Positions 2,789-31,372 of a stretch of DNA of 64,000 nt are shown one piece after another. Position numbers and translations under genes: made by a program. The stretch lies in sequence record OL615011; one strand, 5' to 3'. The stretch's first letter is position 1; every line of letters starts with the position of its first letter. Origin of the DNA: Shigella phage vB_SboS_Gloob. The notes under the pieces are model-generated. The model saw only the letters and a list, made by a program, of their open reading frames with translations. It was not told the origin of the DNA and ran no database searches.

Positions 2789-4351
2789 ATGAACAAGATT
2801 GACGAAAAGATCCTCAAGCATTTGAAGGCAGGCATGAGCCAGAGCGCAATTGCTACTCTGTTGGGCATACCCCGCTCGACTGTACAACGTGTTGCAGACA
2901 CGGAATTCGGTGTTAACCCGTTATCGCTGAAATCTCTGACCACTGAAGAGATTCAGCAGATTCAGGTGAAGAGCAAGGCTGGTGAAAGCAACCGCGCCCT
3001 GGCTGAGTTCTTTGCTGTAAGCGCCAAGACCATTGCTCGCGCTCTGCTGGTCCGGATTACTGAGGAGGAAAACAAGGTAACTGTGATCTCTCCTATCAAG
3101 CAGGAAGAGCAGGAAGTATTCGAAGTACAGCCTGGTGGAACAGCCAAAGACAAAGATGGCTCAGAATGGTATGTTGGGGCATATCTACCGAACCACAACA
3201 AGTATCTGTGTCTCACCAACGACGGTAATTTCACAGGGGCTTTCTTTGAAAAGTCTGAATTGACTCCTGTTGAAGGTGATAGTCGCGCTTTCGGTGTTGA
3301 AGCTATCGGCAAGATGGCAGAAATTTCTGTGGCGCTGTCAGAAGGTGCGGATAAAGTTCCGAGCAACGTTGAAATCAGCGTTGTGGTTGACGGGGAAACC
3401 TATCCTATTCGTGGATCCTTGGATGCCCGTCGTCGTGTTGGTTACTTCGATGCCATCCTCGGCCGCACCCTGCGCCTGGCTCTGTCTTCTGTAGAATTCA
3501 CCGTCGCTATCAAAGACGTTGAAGAAGTGGCTGGTGACAAGAAGACCAAGCAGGACTTCGGCGCGAAAGACCTGGACGTGTTCCTGAACGAACACCAGAT
3601 CCTGATTCTGCCTGACAGCGTTGTTATCGCGATTGATGGCAAGCCGGAAACGATCACCACTTCACATCCAGCATATGACCGCATCGTACAGGCGATCAAA
3701 GACAAAGATGTGAAGCTGGCATACTCGCTGATGCGCCCTCGTGATGCCATCGCGAAGTACGCTGAAGGTCTGGTAGACGTGTCTGACAACCGTGTCCGCT
3801 GGTCTGGCCATGACATCACAGGCACATCCATCGCCAAGCGCGTACTGGCGCTGATGCTGAAGGGTGACTTCCACAACCTGGACCGCATGGCGAAGTTTAT
3901 GGACAAAATGTTCCAGAACCCGTCGGCTGCTCTGGTTCAGTCTGGGCGCATCTATGAGTTCATGGCGTACTCCGACATCGAAATTGACGACGATGGTGAC
4001 ATCATCCTCTACAAATCGGTGCGCGGCAACTACATGGACAAGCACAGCAACACGATCAGCAACGCCCCAGGCACTATCGTGCGCATGGCTCGCTCATTCG
4101 TGAACGACAACAACTCCGACCTGTGTTCATACGGTCTGCATGTGTGCTCCCTGGCCTACCTGAAGGAGTGTTTCGGTTCTGTGGGACAGCGTGTCGTTCG
4201 CTGTAAGCTGAACCCGAAAGATATCGTGTCTATCACCAACGATTACGGCTCCAGTAAAATCCGCTGCTGTGAATACATGGTGTTGGATGATTACACGGCT
4301 GAGTACAACCGTCAGCACAAGTCTATTGACGTGACAGGTCTGTACAAGTAA
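2789..4351 (+). CDS. rIIB: rIIB-like protein
   Basis: C-terminal region (NAPGTIVRM...CSYGLHVCS...RCCEYMVLDDY) closely resembles T4 rIIB as recalled; N-terminal HTH-like segment; ATG at 2789 inside longer track ORF. Confidence 0.75.
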   Translation: MNKIDEKILKHLKAGMSQSAIATLLGIPRSTVQRVADTEFGVNPLSLKSLTTEEIQQIQVKSKAGESNRALAEFFAVSAKTIARALLVRITEEENKVTVISPIKQEEQEVFEVQPGGTAKDKDGSEWYVGAYLPNHNKYLCLTNDGNFTGAFFEKSELTPVEGDSRAFGVEAIGKMAEISVALSEGADKVPSNVEISVVVDGETYPIRGSLDARRRVGYFDAILGRTLRLALSSVEFTVAIKDVEEVAGDKKTKQDFGAKDLDVFLNEHQILILPDSVVIAIDGKPETITTSHPAYDRIVQAIKDKDVKLAYSLMRPRDAIAKYAEGLVDVSDNRVRWSGHDITGTSIAKRVLALMLKGDFHNLDRMAKFMDKMFQNPSAALVQSGRIYEFMAYSDIEIDDDGDIILYKSVRGNYMDKHSNTISNAPGTIVRMARSFVNDNNSDLCSYGLHVCSLAYLKECFGSVGQRVVRCKLNPKDIVSITNDYGSSKIRCCEYMVLDDYTAEYNRQHKSIDVTGLYK

Positions 4352-4402: not shown

Positions 4403-4708
4403 ATGTTAACCACTGATGTCTACTTCAAATATGCGCGACAGACGTATGGCTCGCATCGTGTGACAGACAAATTCTTGATAGACTCCTTCCAGTTTGAAGG
4501 GGAGATGAGGGAATACTCACACAAACAATTCCCACCCCGTGAAGTTCATGGTGACCAGTTCGTGAAATTGTTCTGTCGCTGCGGCGGTTGTGACTTCACA
4601 GATGATGGGTATGCAATGCACGTATACTGCTGCAATTGCTGTGGTAAATACATAACAGTCTATAGGAGAACCAATCATGGCGAAGAAACCCGAAACCAAG
4701 AAAGTTGA
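4403..4708 (+). CDS. hypothetical Cys-rich protein
   Basis: 101-aa ORF with CRCGGC...CCNCCG cysteine cluster; overlaps next gene start. Confidence 0.4.
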   Translation: MLTTDVYFKYARQTYGSHRVTDKFLIDSFQFEGEMREYSHKQFPPREVHGDQFVKLFCRCGGCDFTDDGYAMHVYCCNCCGKYITVYRRTNHGEETRNQES

Positions 4709-5102
4709 AACCGCAACTACAGCCCCCGTTGATGACATCCAGGCGAAGGAGGAAGGTGTGTTACCCACCTACCTGCAACGCGCTGTGGACAACATGCCTA
4801 CAGGCGGGGATGGAGGCGTCGTCTACGCTGGCGGGTACGGTTGGGTGTGCGAATACCGAGACGGCACCAAAGAACTCCTTCAGGAGCTTCCAGGGCTGGC
4901 GTCCACGCTGAAGCGTTATGGTCGCGACAAGTATGGCAAGCCGTTTGAGAAGGGCGCTGTCGTCTCCACCAACATTACAGCAGATACTCTGAACCTTCTG
5001 GGTGTGGACGACCTGAAGCTGCTGGCTGAACCTTTGGGTATCACAGTAGAAGATCGCATTACGTTGATTGCTCAACTGATCGAAAAATTGCAGATTAAAT
5101 AA
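4677..5102 (+). CDS. hypothetical protein
   Basis: 141-aa ORF preceded by AGGAGA ribosome-binding site. Confidence 0.6.
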   Translation: MAKKPETKKVETATTAPVDDIQAKEEGVLPTYLQRAVDNMPTGGDGGVVYAGGYGWVCEYRDGTKELLQELPGLASTLKRYGRDKYGKPFEKGAVVSTNITADTLNLLGVDDLKLLAEPLGITVEDRITLIAQLIEKLQIK

Positions 5103-25374: not shown

Positions 25375-25535
25375 TCGCGTTTCCTCGGGTTATTGGCGGC
25401 TCGGCGTTTTTGGTTTCTTGCCCTGCAGTATTCTTCAAATTCTGCTCGCAGACCTTTCAACTGAATGAACGCGTATGCATCGGCCAACATACGAACCAGT
25501 TTGCGAGGATTGTAAGGCTTGTCTTTGATCAACAT
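25368..25535 (-). CDS. small basic protein (55 aa), not in supplied ORF track
   Basis: ATG 25535 with AGAGGAA RBS; MLIKDKPYNPRKL...NQKRRAANNPRKREC; stop overlaps gp59-like start. Confidence 0.35.
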   Translation of the reverse strand: MLIKDKPYNPRKLVRMLADAYAFIQLKGLRAEFEEYCRARNQKRRAANNPRKREC

Positions 25536-27650: not shown

Positions 27651-27705
27651 GTGGTGTCTCCAGGGTTATATGTGCTGCTATTATAACCCTGGGGACTTCA
27701 ATAGA

Positions 27706-27912
27706 TTATTGGCGGGTGCGGGATCTTGCCTGGCTGATAATGAGGTCAACATGCGGAAGTCGGTCCAATTCCCTTCGGCGCTTGCGTTCCTTACGCCATT
27801 CATGGAATTTTTCGTCTAACATTTCTGTGTTGATGATCGTTGCAATGATGCCAAATGCTCCAACAAAGGTCAAGATCATTTTGATCGAGTCCATCATGAA
27901 CCCTCCGCCCAA
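27706..27912 (-). CDS. small single-TM protein
   Basis: TM helix ILTFVGAFGIIATIINT followed by basic tail. Confidence 0.45.
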   Translation of the reverse strand: MGGGFMMDSIKMILTFVGAFGIIATIINTEMLDEKFHEWRKERKRRRELDRLPHVDLIISQARSRTRQ

Positions 27913-28427
27913 ACAAAGCCGTATTTGTTCAGTAGATCCACAGTTTCACCACGGGCGCGAGCCACGATAGATTCCACTGATTCTTCCACCTCGAGCGGCG
28001 GGCAACCAGCCTTTTCATATGTGTTAAGCAAGAGAGCAAGTTCTTTTACGAACCCTCTTTGTTCCTCTCTTCCAAAGAACCACATCCGCAGATCGTCACG
28101 TTCCCCATGCTTGTTCAGATAGAACATATTCGCGCACACGTAATCGTTTTTCTGAACAACGCCATTTATCTCCGGCCAATGCAACCCAGTCATCGCATAA
28201 TTGAAGAATTCCGAAGGGGTGACTTCGTCCGACACATAATACAAACGGAAGTCACCGCTGGGACCATGTTTGCAAATTCTATCCAGCATTATTTTGTGGA
28301 TGTCAACACGGTCTCGCGTCAAGACTTCCCGTTTCTCTAGTCGACCTCTCAGCCAAGCACTACCAATACACAAAAGAACGAAAGCAGTAGCACCAGTGAG
28401 TATGCCGAAAGAATCAAGATTGATCAT
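27894..28427 (-). CDS. N-terminally membrane-anchored protein
   Basis: TM helix FGILTGATAFVLLCIGSAWL then about 150-aa soluble domain. Confidence 0.5.
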   Translation of the reverse strand: MINLDSFGILTGATAFVLLCIGSAWLRGRLEKREVLTRDRVDIHKIMLDRICKHGPSGDFRLYYVSDEVTPSEFFNYAMTGLHWPEINGVVQKNDYVCANMFYLNKHGERDDLRMWFFGREEQRGFVKELALLLNTYEKAGCPPLEVEESVESIVARARGETVDLLNKYGFVWAEGS

Positions 28428-28469
28428 AAGATCCCCCGAAGTGATAGAGGGGCATAAGCCCCTCCGATG

Positions 28470-29078
28470 TTATTTGCTCAGGCTGGCGAGGTAGTTGTCG
28501 GCTTCGATAGACGACGGGCTGTTGGCGGAGTAGCTCGAATCAGCGATTTCGGTTTCGCGCAGGATGGCATCGATATCGATGGTGGTCATGCCAGCGGCAT
28601 AATCGATATCTTCAGGGAGCACCAGACCCAGGTCGTTCGTCTCTTTTTGAACACGAACCAGCTCGAGGTTGGACTTCACTTCGTCCAGTTTGTCACCCAG
28701 CTGGATGATCGCACCGTTCAGTTTGTCGCTGCTTGCTTCTATGTCCTTCACCTGAGCCAACAGGGCTTCGCCAATACGACGGCGATGCAGGACAATCAGG
28801 GCGTCGGCGCGGGTTGGTGTGACACCGCGAGCGATGGCGTCCTTCAGTACTTCTTCGCGCTTGGCAGCTTCACCCAGGTTCTGTTCTGCGGTCTTCTTCA
28901 GCTTGACGCCGTTGCGAACGTTGGCGACACGGGCTTCTTCCAGGCGGCGGATTTCATCAGACAGCTTACGGGCAGCCAGGTTCAGGCGCTTTTCGGTGCC
29001 GGTCAGTTTATCCAGACCCGTGGTGACGTTGGCTTCAACAGTGGTGAAGATGCGTTTCAGTAAGTTTTTCAGCGACAT
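28470..29078 (-). CDS. PspA/IM30-like coiled-coil protein (putative)
   Basis: N-terminal amphipathic segment MSLKNLLKRIFTTVEANVTTGLDKL resembles PspA N-terminus; long heptad-like coiled coil. Confidence 0.5.
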   Translation of the reverse strand: MSLKNLLKRIFTTVEANVTTGLDKLTGTEKRLNLAARKLSDEIRRLEEARVANVRNGVKLKKTAEQNLGEAAKREEVLKDAIARGVTPTRADALIVLHRRRIGEALLAQVKDIEASSDKLNGAIIQLGDKLDEVKSNLELVRVQKETNDLGLVLPEDIDYAAGMTTIDIDAILRETEIADSSYSANSPSSIEADNYLASLSK

Positions 29079-29093
29079 TAGTGTGATCCTCAG

Positions 29094-29435
29094 TTATTTC
29101 TTCGGGGGTTTAATTGAGGTGAAAGAATCCTTCCAACTCTTGAATTGTTCAACCAGAGCATCTTTACCCAGCTCGCCATTTGACACGCTGTGAACGTAGG
29201 CGAATGCCCCATAGCTGGATCCTGGCATAGCCTTACAGATGCGCAGACTGACCAAAGACTCGCCCACAGAAACAAGGTAATGATCGCGGCGATTGTCCAG
29301 GGCATAGTGGTTGTCATGAAACTTGTCGATAACAACACAGTTCTGAGGTTCGACGTCAATCGGTAGCCCGTTGGCTTCGGATCCACCGCGCCCAAGCACG
29401 CAGCCTGGGAATAATGTTTCTACGAGTGTGGTCAT
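29094..29435 (-). CDS. hypothetical protein
   Basis: 113-aa ORF; TATAAT-like box and AGAAGGA RBS upstream. Confidence 0.5.
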   Translation of the reverse strand: MTTLVETLFPGCVLGRGGSEANGLPIDVEPQNCVVIDKFHDNHYALDNRRDHYLVSVGESLVSLRICKAMPGSSYGAFAYVHSVSNGELGKDALVEQFKSWKDSFTSIKPPKK

Positions 29436-29489
29436 GGTCTGTTCCTTCTGTAAGTTCCCATGTATTATATGGGTGAATCGTTTAATGAA

Positions 29490-30057: not shown

Positions 30058-30170
30058 CGTTTCCTCTTAAAGGGGATGATCAGAGCTATGATAACAAGCA
30101 TAGCTGTAATCACCCCGCATGCTATTAGACCAAAGGCGAACGACTTCAGAACAAACTCAATCAAATTCAT
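30057..30170 (-). CDS. very small membrane protein (37 aa), not in ORF track
   Basis: MNLIEFVLKSFAFGLIACGVITAMLVIIALIIPF; start overlaps upstream stop. Confidence 0.3.
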
Positions 30171-31372
30171 AACTTCCTCAATTTGGCTCTGGTGACCTGA
30201 GTTTGTTTAACGCCATTATACTCGGTCAGTTCTTTGACACGACCACGGATGATCATGTCGCCCTGCAGGAACTCGGTATCCATGTACGAGGTCTTCCAGG
30301 TAATTGTATTACCTTCTGCTGTTTTGAAAGTGAACAGGTAGCTGTCGCCGTATTCATTAGAGAAGAGGAAGGTACGCTTGTCAAACGTGACGCGGACTTC
30401 CAGCATTTCACCGACTTCTGCTACCCACTTGTTCTCCGTCTTGCGGTCGGTGCGAGGACGATGGATGTAATCGTAATACTTCTTGGCACCCCAACGGACT
30501 GTGTTGGAATCCTTAATGAGGTGATAGCCAGGTTCACACATGCGTTTCAAGCGAACATTGAATTCGTTGGATTCAGACAGCGCGCTGATGAAGAGCATCA
30601 TGTGGTACATTTCTGACTCGGCGTCTTCGCGATATTCACGAGCCTTAATCAGAAACATCTCGGCATCAGAACCCGCCTTTGGCTTCTGCCCAGCACGCAG
30701 GTAGCCCAGCACCTGGTCAAACAGTTCTGATTTGATGTCCACTCCAGCCAGCAGCACCTGGAAGCATGCACGCAAATAACCGTGGGTGTCCGCGAAGCGT
30801 TCATTCCGGACGCGATAGATCCCCTCTGGGTCGTCTTCATCCGGCATGAAGAATTCGGTGATGCCCAGATAGTAAGACATAATCGCATCAAGAGATTTCT
30901 GATGCGGTACGTAGTGATGCATGCAGGTGCTACCGATCAGCATCTGGGTGTGGGTCTGCTCATTCTCAATCACATATGTGTTCTTGCGATTGATGAGCAG
31001 ATTGCAGTGCTGGCACCAAGAAACGTTCTCCCCCTCGAAGCGACGGATGAAGTCGGCATTGATGTTGTCAGACAGTTTGTTCAGGATGACCTTTGGGTAT
31101 TCGTGATTGAACTGACCGATAATCTTCCATCCGCCGTAAGAAACTGGGCGGTCAATGCCTTCTCCTTCGAGGGTGACGGGTTTCCACCAGTGAGTAAGGA
31201 TCTCACCAGTGATGTCACGGGTGTGGGTCTTGAAGGGATCACCATAAGTCACAGTCGGGAACGGGACACCCAGCCTTTCGGCAGTGCGCTCGAGCTTCTT
31301 CAGCCGCTCAACGACCAGTTCTTCATTGTCGATCGGAATGTTGAATGTTTTGGCGTTCATTTCCAGCCTCAT
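30167..31372 (-). CDS. hypothetical protein with Cys/His cluster
   Basis: 401-aa ORF; WCQHC ... STCMHHY motif; AT-rich putative promoter upstream. Confidence 0.6.
   Translation of the reverse strand: MRLEMNAKTFNIPIDNEELVVERLKKLERTAERLGVPFPTVTYGDPFKTHTRDITGEILTHWWKPVTLEGEGIDRPVSYGGWKIIGQFNHEYPKVILNKLSDNINADFIRRFEGENVSWCQHCNLLINRKNTYVIENEQTHTQMLIGSTCMHHYVPHQKSLDAIMSYYLGITEFFMPDEDDPEGIYRVRNERFADTHGYLRACFQVLLAGVDIKSELFDQVLGYLRAGQKPKAGSDAEMFLIKAREYREDAESEMYHMMLFISALSESNEFNVRLKRMCEPGYHLIKDSNTVRWGAKKYYDYIHRPRTDRKTENKWVAEVGEMLEVRVTFDKRTFLFSNEYGDSYLFTFKTAEGNTITWKTSYMDTEFLQGDMIIRGRVKELTEYNGVKQTQVTRAKLRKL

Follow-up and report, generated by a model that had tools for sequence, protein, structure and literature searches.

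Several described systems have a PspA-type gene beside genes for small single-pass membrane proteins, i.e., PspB/PspC-PspA in Proteobacteria, LiaI-LiaH in Bacillus, and PspM-PspA in Mycobacterium, and the same arrangement is found in the phage cassette described here; by analogy, the cytoplasmic parts of such small membrane proteins could recruit the PspA-type protein. The pspFABCDE locus is encoded by E. coli K-12 and also by the enterobacterial hosts Shigella, Salmonella, and Klebsiella, and E. coli PspA acts both as an effector and as an anti-activator of PspF. A "phage-encoded PspA" belonging to phrog_1203 is known from the Kuttervirus SeF3a (Gp_125), for which PspA homology was reported from a pdb70 comparison together with an anti-Abi hypothesis (Gendre et al., 2022; PMC9409062). 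The accessible text of that paper treats a single gene peculiar to SeF3a among the authors' isolates, and a three-gene cassette, a link to T4 e.6, and deletion variants do not appear in it. Our literature search on the function of T4 e.6 and on phage-encoded PspA retrieved only Gendre et al. (2022) and a T4 omics supplement. The PspA assignment itself is thus not new, being already known from NCBI annotation and from Gendre et al. (2022); new here are the cassette architecture, the connection to T4 e.6, and the controls.

The window analyzed is the whole 64,000-nucleotide stretch of the Shigella phage vB_SboS_Gloob (OL615011), which is a ViI-like phage (Ackermannviridae). The three open reading frames (ORFs) that the earlier note had singled out were recovered as a co-directional set (Table 1), and since homologs of all three are kept in other phages they were considered real genes rather than chance ORFs. 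The cassette has the order PspA-like gene, hairpin, 177-aa membrane protein gene, and small transmembrane (TM) protein gene, is flanked by a p113 homolog and the DNA ligase gene, and lies in an early/middle block of DNA-replication genes (ligase, gp59, gp41, UvsX). A promoter-like conserved hairpin before the ligase gene was also considered as a repeated mobile regulatory cassette and was rejected, as it is present in a single copy in the window.

Table 1. Coordinates of the PspA-like gene, its neighbors, and the optional segment in the window.
Feature	Position	Strand	Description
PspA/IM30-like gene	28470-29078	minus	202 aa; T4 e.6 homolog; phrog_1203 member
GC-rich stem-loop	28447-28464	minus	GAGGGGC-UUAU-GCCCCUC, dG -20.5 kcal/mol, z -2.98
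177-aa membrane protein gene	27894-28427	minus	phrog_11433; N-terminal TM
62-aa single-pass membrane protein gene	27706-27894	minus	phrog_25181; ORF extends to TTG 27912
Optional cassette extent	27749-29086	none	1338-bp segment missing in sister phages

The 202-aa protein was matched by the Pfam model PF04012 (PspA_IM30) with an E-value of 1.4e-9 and 38.4 bits (gathering cut-off: 33.9 bits), residues 5-147 being aligned to profile positions 1-144. Other family members scored 35.1 bits (P0045) and 33.9 bits (P0027), and an E-value of 0.01 or better was reached singly by only 11 of 40 members. PF04012 was the best family for all five forward sequences searched (the window protein and four diverse members), always from profile position 1-3, and matched none of the five reversed-sequence controls at E<=1; the match is therefore not an artefact of coiled-coil composition. 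A phmmer search of the PDB with the single 202-aa sequence gave no matches and profiles were therefore needed. With the family profile A1 the best eight PDB matches were all Vipp1/PspA, in register from residue 1; with the broader profile A2 the E-values went down to 8.7e-6, so that significance grew with the family diversity added, and across the family profiles the best 8-9 PDB matches were Vipp1/PspA. E. coli PspA (4whe) was among the A2 matches (6.3e-4, query residues 1-146 on chain residues 1-147), and a comparison of the two by hhalign gave an E-value of 3.4e-5 and a probability of 72% at ~17% identity. The HMM searches against PspA/IM30/Vipp1 that had been proposed in the earlier note as a check on its PspA reading thus returned significant matches to these families, and the refuting outcome named there, a lack of such matches, did not arise. 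An exhaustive search for the family found only 43 cluster representatives, most of them ~200 aa long, and on this basis the family was read as standing apart, as its own lineage, from canonical bacterial PspA. One of the proteins retrieved (P0057, 3868 aa, whose 17 matches fall in family positions 143-190) is an adhesin with Ig/cadherin repeats, and its match was read as spurious.

The AF2 model of the 202-aa protein (pLDDT 80.9) contains two long helices, 3-83 and 90-149, which form a hairpin (pLDDT about 87-96), and the best five matches of this model in the PDB using Foldseek were all Vipp1 (probability 1.0, TM 0.50-0.57, E=6e-3 or weaker). These E-values are weak, and a helical hairpin is a common shape that many coiled coils match. 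As in PspA/IM30/Vipp1, an N-terminal amphipathic helix is followed by the alpha1-alpha2/3 hairpin, whose tip lies close to residue 85, and the length of 202 aa is similar to the 222 aa of PspA. The alpha0 helix, aligned residue for residue with that of E. coli PspA, has a hydrophobic moment of 0.48 compared to 0.49, a value of modest statistics (z=1.8, reached by 5.6% of shuffles). The PspA-like amphipathic N-terminus and long helical, coiled-coil region described in the earlier note are both borne out by this moment and by the modeled hairpin. The N-terminus of the phage protein is, however, net basic (family median net charge of +2 for residues 1-25), whereas that of E. coli PspA is acidic. 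Homology to PspA spans residues ~1-147 only; the C-terminal quarter, with its motifs LGLxLPEDIDY, VDVDAILRE, and DNYLASL, is family-specific and was not aligned to PspA alpha4/alpha5 by either HMMER or hhalign. In this quarter the conserved linker LGLxLPEDIDY, predicted to be flexible, precedes two short helices (169-177 and 190-201; pLDDT about 60-87) that are strongly conserved within the family, and the conserved DNYLASL motif stands at the end. The short helices after this flexible elbow may correspond to PspA alpha4/alpha5. The phage protein further differs from PspA in being encoded by lytic phages and outside a PspF/B/C context, and its oligomerization and membrane binding are putative.

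An unrelated helical protein, e.g., a virion or assembly factor matched through its coiled coil, might account for such similarities: Foldseek pairs a helical hairpin with many coiled coils, two Klebsiella phage records (XDRKpn-1 and UPM 2146) carry the label "tail completion protein", and the T4-type subfamily taken alone is not significant against PspA. We regard this as most improbable, because PF04012 was matched by forward and never by reversed sequences and always from the start of the profile, all of the best PDB profile matches were Vipp1/PspA with a significance that rose with family diversity, and the gene lies in an early block with its T4 counterpart made early to mid infection. 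We are therefore highly confident that the 202-aa protein, though distant, is a true homolog of PspA/IM30/Vipp1, i.e., a compact and deeply diverged phage-lineage member of this (bacterial ESCRT-III) superfamily.

The 202-aa protein was matched by phrog_1203 with an E-value of 3.3e-66 (residues 4-201), and hhalign gave E-values of 5.5e-40 over 197 columns for T4 e.6 and of 1.4e-37 between the subfamily profiles. The e.6 family (phrog_1203), one of conserved hypothetical proteins, is widespread in T4-type phages (Straboviridae) of many hosts. It shares with the window protein full-length homology, all motifs, an equal length, and a GC hairpin after the stop codon, and differs in being only 20-31% identical to it. 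T4-type members do not individually reach the Pfam PspA model, and a profile of T4-type members only fell short of significance against PspA/Vipp1 (E=0.064; 12.5% probability in hhalign), so that the link of the T4-type proteins to PspA is transitive. The T4-type e.6 homologs also differ in their context, which lacks the 177-aa and small-TM neighbors: in RB43 and Aes012 the neighbors of e.6 are unrelated and are not membrane proteins. T4 e.5, e.4, and e.3 were considered as diverged homologs of the 177-aa protein and were rejected on comparison.

The codon bias of the PspA-like gene is the strongest host-type bias in the neighborhood (CTG for 22 of 27 Leu, CGY for 15 of 15 Arg). The stem-loop lies directly 3' of its stop codon and about 20 nt upstream of the 177-aa start, and an equivalent hairpin is found 3' of the homologous gene in Vi01, K751, Ag3, T4, RB43 (with a T-run), and Aes012. 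It is probably a partial terminator or a stabilizer of the RNA 3' end, and may provide partial transcriptional insulation between the PspA-like and 177-aa genes.

A part in lysis timing had also been raised in the earlier note; in that case the PspA-like and TM proteins might act as an antiholin-like factor or a regulator of hole formation. Holin triggering is sensitive to membrane potential, and any protein that stabilizes the proton-motive force (PMF) would therefore shift lysis time indirectly; a small single-pass membrane protein is a typical kind of lysis regulator, and in T4 the distance between e.6 and the lysozyme gene e is about 2.3 kb. This interval holds five unrelated genes, however, and the cassette is placed between the DNA ligase gene and genes of replication/recombination, where it adjoins no gene for an endolysin, holin, or spanin. 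Isolates without the cassette are viable and must evidently still be able to lyse, and T4 e.6 is classed as early-RNA/middle-protein (PMC9697503 supplement) rather than late. Given this position and timing a lysis-timing role is not favored, and was considered very unlikely.

The 177-aa protein has a single hydrophobic segment (residues ~6-27, KD19 1.83), in agreement with the TM anchor described in the earlier note. This N-terminal anchor is variable and is followed by a basic stretch, from which the positive-inside rule predicts an N-out/C-in topology. For the remaining alpha/beta domain, predicted to be cytoplasmic, no recognizable fold was found, and the C-terminus of the family is invariant (ESIVARARGxxVDLLNKYGFxW). 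The small protein, described in the earlier note as a 68-aa single-TM protein, does have one TM segment (KD19 2.06), but a length of 62 aa is more likely: the start at ATG 27894 is preferred for its GGAGGG Shine-Dalgarno sequence 6 nt upstream, its overlap with the TGA of the 177-aa gene, the annotation of Ag3, and phrog_25181. Its basic tail, predicted to be cytoplasmic, ends in VDLIISQARSRTRQ, which is common to paralogous small TM ORFs at the same position. In size and in its predicted N-out topology the 62-aa protein presumably resembles PspB. Neither the 177-aa nor the 62-aa protein, however, has sequence or profile similarity to PspB or PspC, and searches against Pfam gave no similarity to these or to any other family.

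Since E. coli PspA doubles as an effector and as the anti-activator of PspF, the phage protein could also be a mimic that binds PspF, PspB/C, or host PspA and switches the phage-shock response off or on without repairing the membrane. The region conserved in the phage protein is alpha0-alpha3, and the hosts of these phages carry the psp genes. With its low identity to E. coli PspA the protein is neither a close mimic nor recently captured from a host, and the reading of the family as a separate lineage was also counted against this idea; from its very strong codon bias the gene looks more like one for an abundant structural protein than one for a stoichiometric regulator. The phage gene moreover travels with membrane protein genes of its own, and Pfam and NCBIfam searches of its neighbors gave no match to PspB, PspC, or PspF. 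Such regulatory mimicry was accordingly judged to be quite improbable.

The same order of PspA-like gene, hairpin, 177-aa-type gene, and small TM gene between the p113 homolog and ligase was found in Ag3, SKML-39, Vi01, and K751, and is identical in three genera (Agtrevirus, Kuttervirus, and Taipeivirus), with one to three small TM genes (~55 aa) per Ackermannviridae cassette. The Kuttervirus members of the family, the Vi01 protein among them, share about 80% identity with the window protein, and SeF3a also has a homolog of the 177-aa protein. The PspA-like gene was present at an identity of at least 60% in 85 phage records, and a 177-aa homolog was present in 85, the two being adjacent in all 11 records with both coordinates listed. 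The ligase region was matched by 266 records compared to the 85 with the cassette, i.e., the cassette is present in about a third of related genomes, and always with both larger genes. The segment is missing in the Agtreviruses ChubbyThor and SW16-7, which are ~97% identical elsewhere; they retain no more of the small TM gene than its final ~14 codons and are thus deletion derivatives, and an analogous absence was found in the Kutterviruses Sajous1, Maynard, and CBA120. Clean loss in near-identical phages indicates that the cassette is dispensable in nature. Between genera the PspA-like protein is 78-82% identical and the 177-aa protein only 26-31%, compared to 70-82% for the flanking genes. 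Conservation of the PspA-like protein (~80%) is at the level of DNA ligase, and by this sequence comparison purifying selection on it equals that on ligase.

The suggestion of the earlier note that the adjacent membrane proteins are partners is supported on the genomic side by gene order, co-occurrence, and co-loss, but T4-type e.6 homologs occur without such partners. Co-inheritance of neighbors within one indel cassette could also reflect physical linkage alone.

The distribution of the cassette bears on the proposal, made for the SeF3a homolog by Gendre et al. (2022; PMC9409062), as far as its accessible text goes, that such proteins serve in counter-defense. The cassette would then neutralize abortive-infection or other effectors that depolarize the inner membrane, with the membrane proteins tracking host-specific targets. 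Its patchy presence and clean natural deletions are those of an accessory element, and the divergence of the 177-aa protein between conserved flanking genes is a typical arms-race pattern. The PspA-like protein is, however, highly conserved and its family widespread in T4-type phages, which is more like a housekeeping-type function in infection; NCBIfam and PADLOC searches gave no match for any of the three cassette proteins, no known anti-defense family was matched, and no experimental link to a defense system was found. Counter-defense was therefore considered unlikely as the purpose of the cassette. The membrane-sealing mechanism would be the same as in our main explanation with a different selective purpose, and a phenotype would be predicted only on defense-carrying hosts.

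The most likely role of the cassette, which we infer from PspA family membership with its natural suggestion of membrane stabilization, is protection of the inner membrane and the PMF during infection. The 202-aa protein would be made in large amounts, early to mid infection, from the replication-gene block; the timing of T4 e.6, the position in this block, the codon bias, and the conserved 3' hairpin were counted for such expression. Its basic amphipathic N-terminal helix would bind the cytoplasmic face of the inner membrane, an affinity for which the moment and net charge of alpha0 were counted, and the alpha1-alpha3 hairpin would polymerize into a coat limiting proton leak. This coat could keep up the PMF through the latent period and so prevent premature holin firing or death by membrane damage, with superinfection and pore-forming abortive-infection effectors among the sources of damage. 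The co-inherited N-out/C-in membrane proteins (177 aa and one to three of ~55 aa) are probably anchors or regulators supplied by the phage, similar to PspB/C-PspA or LiaI-LiaH in logic and not in sequence. We give even chances to the combined explanation of PspA homology and inner-membrane protection; its mechanistic part, i.e., membrane binding, polymerization, partners, and physiology, is put forward tentatively, as somewhat less probable than that.

A broader and rather doubtful proposition is that the e.6/PspA-like proteins form a membrane-repair polymer of the ESCRT-III type adapted to phages and used early in infection by large lytic myoviruses, both T4-type and ViI-type, which would hold the host PMF against premature holin firing and pore-forming abortive infection and which in Ackermannviridae would be targeted to the membrane by fast-evolving single-pass proteins of a new fold. 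If true, this would give an orphan T4 gene a role, and phages would be shown to have a "phage shock protein" of their own. Through the full-length link to T4 e.6 the idea can be tested directly in the best genetic system there is, and natural sister phages with the cassette (e.g., MK-13 and P46FS4) and without it (e.g., ChubbyThor and SW16-7) are already at hand for comparison. Kuttervirus, Agtrevirus, and Taipeivirus are candidate genera for phage therapy, and the cassette may influence how well such phages perform on hosts that carry membrane-targeting defenses. PspA, Vipp1, and ESCRT-III are universal machinery of membrane repair and remodeling, and finding a version of it in phages would mean that large lytic phages take an active part in keeping the host membrane energized and do not depend on the stress response of the host alone.

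The 202-aa protein is PspA-like over roughly its first 147 residues. It was recognised by the Pfam model PspA_IM30 (PF04012; E=1.4e-9; 38.4 bits, where the gathering cut-off is 33.9), with profile positions 1-144 aligned with residues 5-147. A single-sequence search of the PDB gave no match. Using a profile of 21 Ackermannviridae sequences (A1) the top eight PDB matches were all Vipp1/PspA chains (best E=2.1e-3, chain 3-142 against query 6-144), and using a profile of 40 sequences from the entire family range (A2) the best E-value improved to 8.7e-6, with all of the top nine matches being Vipp1/PspA and E. coli PspA (4whe) matched at 6.3e-4 (query 1-146 on chain 1-147). Comparison of A2 with the E. 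coli PspA sequence from the MG1655 record using hhalign returned a probability of 72% (E=3.4e-5). A coiled-coil artefact, the last-ranked of the rival explanations, was effectively excluded by composition controls, in which PF04012 was found at E<=1 in none of five reversed family sequences and was the top family, from profile position 1-3, for all forward sequences. The earlier note's identification of a PspA-type protein was therefore correct, given the Pfam score above gathering and the Vipp1/PspA profile matches, but already known: homologues carry the NCBI name 'PspA/IM30 family protein' and precomputed Pfam matches exist. Two homologues are labelled 'tail completion protein' (PP792980.1 of XDRKpn-1 and UniProt A0A5Q2F7S5 of UPM 2146), for which no support was found and which is probably an annotation error.

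In the AF2 model (pLDDT 80.9) helices 3-83 and 90-149 form a hairpin, followed by a flexible stretch (150-168) and short helices at 169-177 and 190-201. The top five Foldseek matches of this model in the PDB were Vipp1 structures (probability 1.0, TM 0.50-0.57), at weak E-values (6e-3) and with generic coiled coils close behind. The N-terminal helix equals alpha0 of E. coli PspA in amphipathicity (hydrophobic moment 0.48 against 0.49); this helix is net basic in the phage protein and acidic in E. coli PspA. Family members share a strongly conserved C-terminal quarter (motifs LGLxLPEDIDY, VDVDAILRE, and DNYLASL), which gave no alignment to PspA with any method used.

In an exhaustive HMM search of 1.84 billion representatives no more than 43 clusters passed E<=1e-3, most of them near 200 aa in length, and we therefore read the family as a putative narrow lineage separate from canonical bacterial PspA. 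By tblastn it is present in 236 phage records, 85 at >=60% identity (Ackermannviridae) and 151 at 25-31% identity, the latter all Straboviridae (T4-type) among the matches listed; these carriers include RB43, the Karamvirus group, and T4-types of Aeromonas, Serratia, and Erwinia. The gene is named 'e.6' in the Ag3 annotation, and T4 e.6 (197 aa) aligned at full length with the family profile (E=5.5e-40), as did the Ackermannviridae and T4-type sub-profiles with each other at E=1.4e-37. The T4-type sub-profile alone was not significant against PspA/Vipp1 (E=0.064; hhalign probability 12.5%), with the alignment in register, and T4 e.6 had no PspA match in Pfam, so that on these sequence comparisons the membership of e.6 in the PspA superfamily is transitive, via the Ackermannviridae branch. 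More canonical superfamily members than the e.6 family are a 'PspA/IM30 family protein' of Acinetobacter phage vB_AbaM_ME3 and a 'Snf7 family protein' from a Megaviridae sample (BFVD A0A172Q0S7, A0A5J6VLN6); viral ESCRT-III/PspA genes are thus not limited to the e.6 family.

Coordinates of the features in the window and in related phage loci (L001, Ag3; L003, RB43; L004, Aes012; L008, T4)
Feature	Position	Strand	Description
PspA-like gene	window 28470-29078	-	202 aa, without hydrophobic segment; phrog_1203 (PHROGs: unknown function)
177-aa gene	window 27894-28427	-	one N-terminal hydrophobic segment, KD19 1.83; phrog_11433 (PHROGs 'membrane protein')
Small TM gene	window 27706-27912	-	68 aa from TTG; one hydrophobic segment, KD19 2.06; phrog_25181 (PHROGs 'membrane protein')
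Small TM ORF set	window 27706-27894; Ag3 4482-4980 (L001)		paralogous tiny ORFs
GC tetraloop hairpin	window 28447-28464		3' of PspA-like stop codon; dG -20.5, z -3.0
e.6 3' hairpin	T4 3271-3316 (L008)		AGGGGC-UUCG-GCCCCU
e.6-type 3' hairpin	RB43 4592-4632 (L003)		with T-run
e.6-type 3' hairpin	Aes012 4583-4637 (L004)		GC-rich tetraloop
TATAAT-hairpin element	window 27660-27704	-	CTATTGAAGTC..GGGTTATAATA
Antisense ORF	window 28467-29063	+	198 aa
113-aa gene	window 29092-29445		phrog_5022
401-aa gene	window 30167-31372		phrog_2319 (function unassigned in PHROGs)
MobE-type gene	Ag3 1503-2198 (L001)		absent at the corresponding window position, ~25375-25530
T4 e.4, e.3, e.2	T4 1653-2694 (L008)		KD19 2.74, 2.43, 1.96

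The three co-directional minus-strand ORFs were all found as the earlier note described them. For the small TM gene the most likely start is ATG 27894 (62 aa): GGAGGG precedes this codon by 6 nt, the codon overlaps the 177-aa gene's TGA, and it agrees with the phrog_25181 alignment as well as the Ag3 annotation. Agtrevirus phages (Ackermannviridae) match the region at 94-97% identity, namely Shigella phage Ag3, Salmonella phage SKML-39, P46FS4, and MK-13. The three genes belong to a long run of early/middle genes on the minus strand, which also includes those for the gp59 helicase loader, DNA ligase, gp41 primase-helicase, and UvsX. The antisense ORF covering nearly the entire PspA-like gene is read as a putative shadow ORF, attributable to the sense strand's strong GC3/codon bias. 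The conserved 401-aa protein had no Pfam match; its identity between Ackermannviridae genera is 62-70%, and the Ag3 annotation names KVP40.0369 of Vibrio phage KVP40 as similar. A MobE-type homing endonuclease adjoins the helicase-loader gene of Ag3 and is absent at that position from the window and SKML-39; SW16-7 has a putative homing endonuclease near the corresponding position.

Homologues of the 177-aa protein occur in exactly 85 phage records, all with enterobacterial hosts (Ackermannviridae-type), the same number as carry the PspA-like gene at >=60% identity. In 11/11 records with both coordinate sets listed, the two genes lie next to each other on one strand and keep a constant order. 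The order p113 homologue, PspA-like gene, GC hairpin, membrane protein, small TM ORF(s), ligase is common to Agtrevirus (window, Ag3, SKML-39), Kuttervirus (Vi01), and Taipeivirus (K751). Small TM ORFs were not found outside Agtrevirus by tblastn; those of different genera share position and a C-terminal motif (VDIIISQARSRTRQ, IDHIVSKARGRRK, TDLIVHNARKRRK, VDVLQIVDKARKRHGK, VDIDSIIKQARSRTRQ), which in the paralogous set is the basic D-(L/I)-I-(I/V)-S-x-A-R-x-R-x-(R/K). Ag3 and SKML-39 have three paralogues each between the 177-aa gene and ligase, and the window has one recombinant copy, in which the body of the first paralogue (orf47) is joined to the tail of the last (orf46), apparently through recombination between repeated 3' ends (window ~27740-27750). 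Since basic residues immediately follow the TM segment of the 177-aa and small TM proteins, both are predicted to be N-out/C-in; their soluble parts would then share the cytoplasm with the PspA-like protein. The proposal that the membrane proteins may be its partners has genomic support within one phage family. In T4, a TM-like segment is encoded by each of three genes 3' of e.6 and e.5 (e.4, e.3, and e.2), none of which showed similarity to the 177-aa protein.

ChubbyThor and SW16-7 (Agtrevirus) lack window 27749-29086, with both flanks about 97% identical to the window. Of the small TM gene they retain no more than the final ~14 codons, joined on just 3' of the p113 stop; these leftover codons identify them as deletion derivatives. 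The whole cassette is also absent from the Kutterviruses Sajous1 (flanks 93-99% identical to Vi01), Maynard, and CBA120, and the ligase region matches ~266 records against 85 with the module. The clean absences in both genera indicate that the cassette is dispensable and lost as a unit. Directly upstream of the PspA-like gene, the 113-aa gene is precisely missing from SKML-39, and Maynard lacks the p116 homologue too; this stretch is a hotspot for clean single-gene indels.

Comparison between genera gave 78-82% identity for the PspA-like protein, the level of DNA ligase (80-82%), and only 26-31% for the 177-aa protein. Host-type codon bias is by far the strongest locally in the PspA-like gene (Leu CTG 22/27, Arg CGY 15/15) and is lacking in the 177-aa gene (5/19 and 5/13). 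A GC tetraloop hairpin 3' of the e.6/PspA-like stop codon was found in every phage examined from two phage families (the window, Vi01, K751, Ag3, T4, RB43, Aes012), and appears to travel with the gene. Taken together, selection, codon bias, and hairpin suggest that the PspA-like protein may be abundant and the membrane proteins less so. The second of the rivals, a decoy role towards the host's Psp regulator, is disfavoured because the protein is ~17% identical to host PspA and because the codon bias implies abundance. Immediately 5' of the ligase start codon a TATAAT lies inside a 33-nt hairpin (CCAGGGTTATA...TATAACCCTGG), an element present once in the window and conserved among Agtrevirus and Kuttervirus phages both with and without the cassette; promoter of the phage and translational control element are candidate roles.

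T4 e.6 is classed as early-RNA/middle-protein, and its protein was thus detected in infected cells (supplement of PMC9697503). Of the two roles offered in the earlier note, membrane stabilisation is more plausible than lysis timing, a disfavoured reading (third among the rivals) against which the genomic position of the cassette and early expression argue. What is shown is homology, architecture, co-inheritance, and expression timing; the mechanism that we infer as best supported is a phage-lineage PspA/ESCRT-III-type protein that would coat the inner membrane and stabilise it through the latent period. The rival taken most seriously, a dedicated counter-defence role, would involve the same mechanism with a narrower purpose; Gendre et al. 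(2022; PMC9409062) identified the phrog_1203 protein of Kuttervirus SeF3a as a PspA homologue and hypothesised an anti-abortive-infection role. Experimental work on any member of the e.6/PspA-like family was not found in our literature search. New here are the explicit connection between T4 e.6 and the PspA superfamily and a conserved three-gene cassette, lost as a unit and containing a fast-evolving orphan membrane protein; in Ackermannviridae, the phage-encoded membrane proteins would serve as anchors or regulators of the PspA-like protein.
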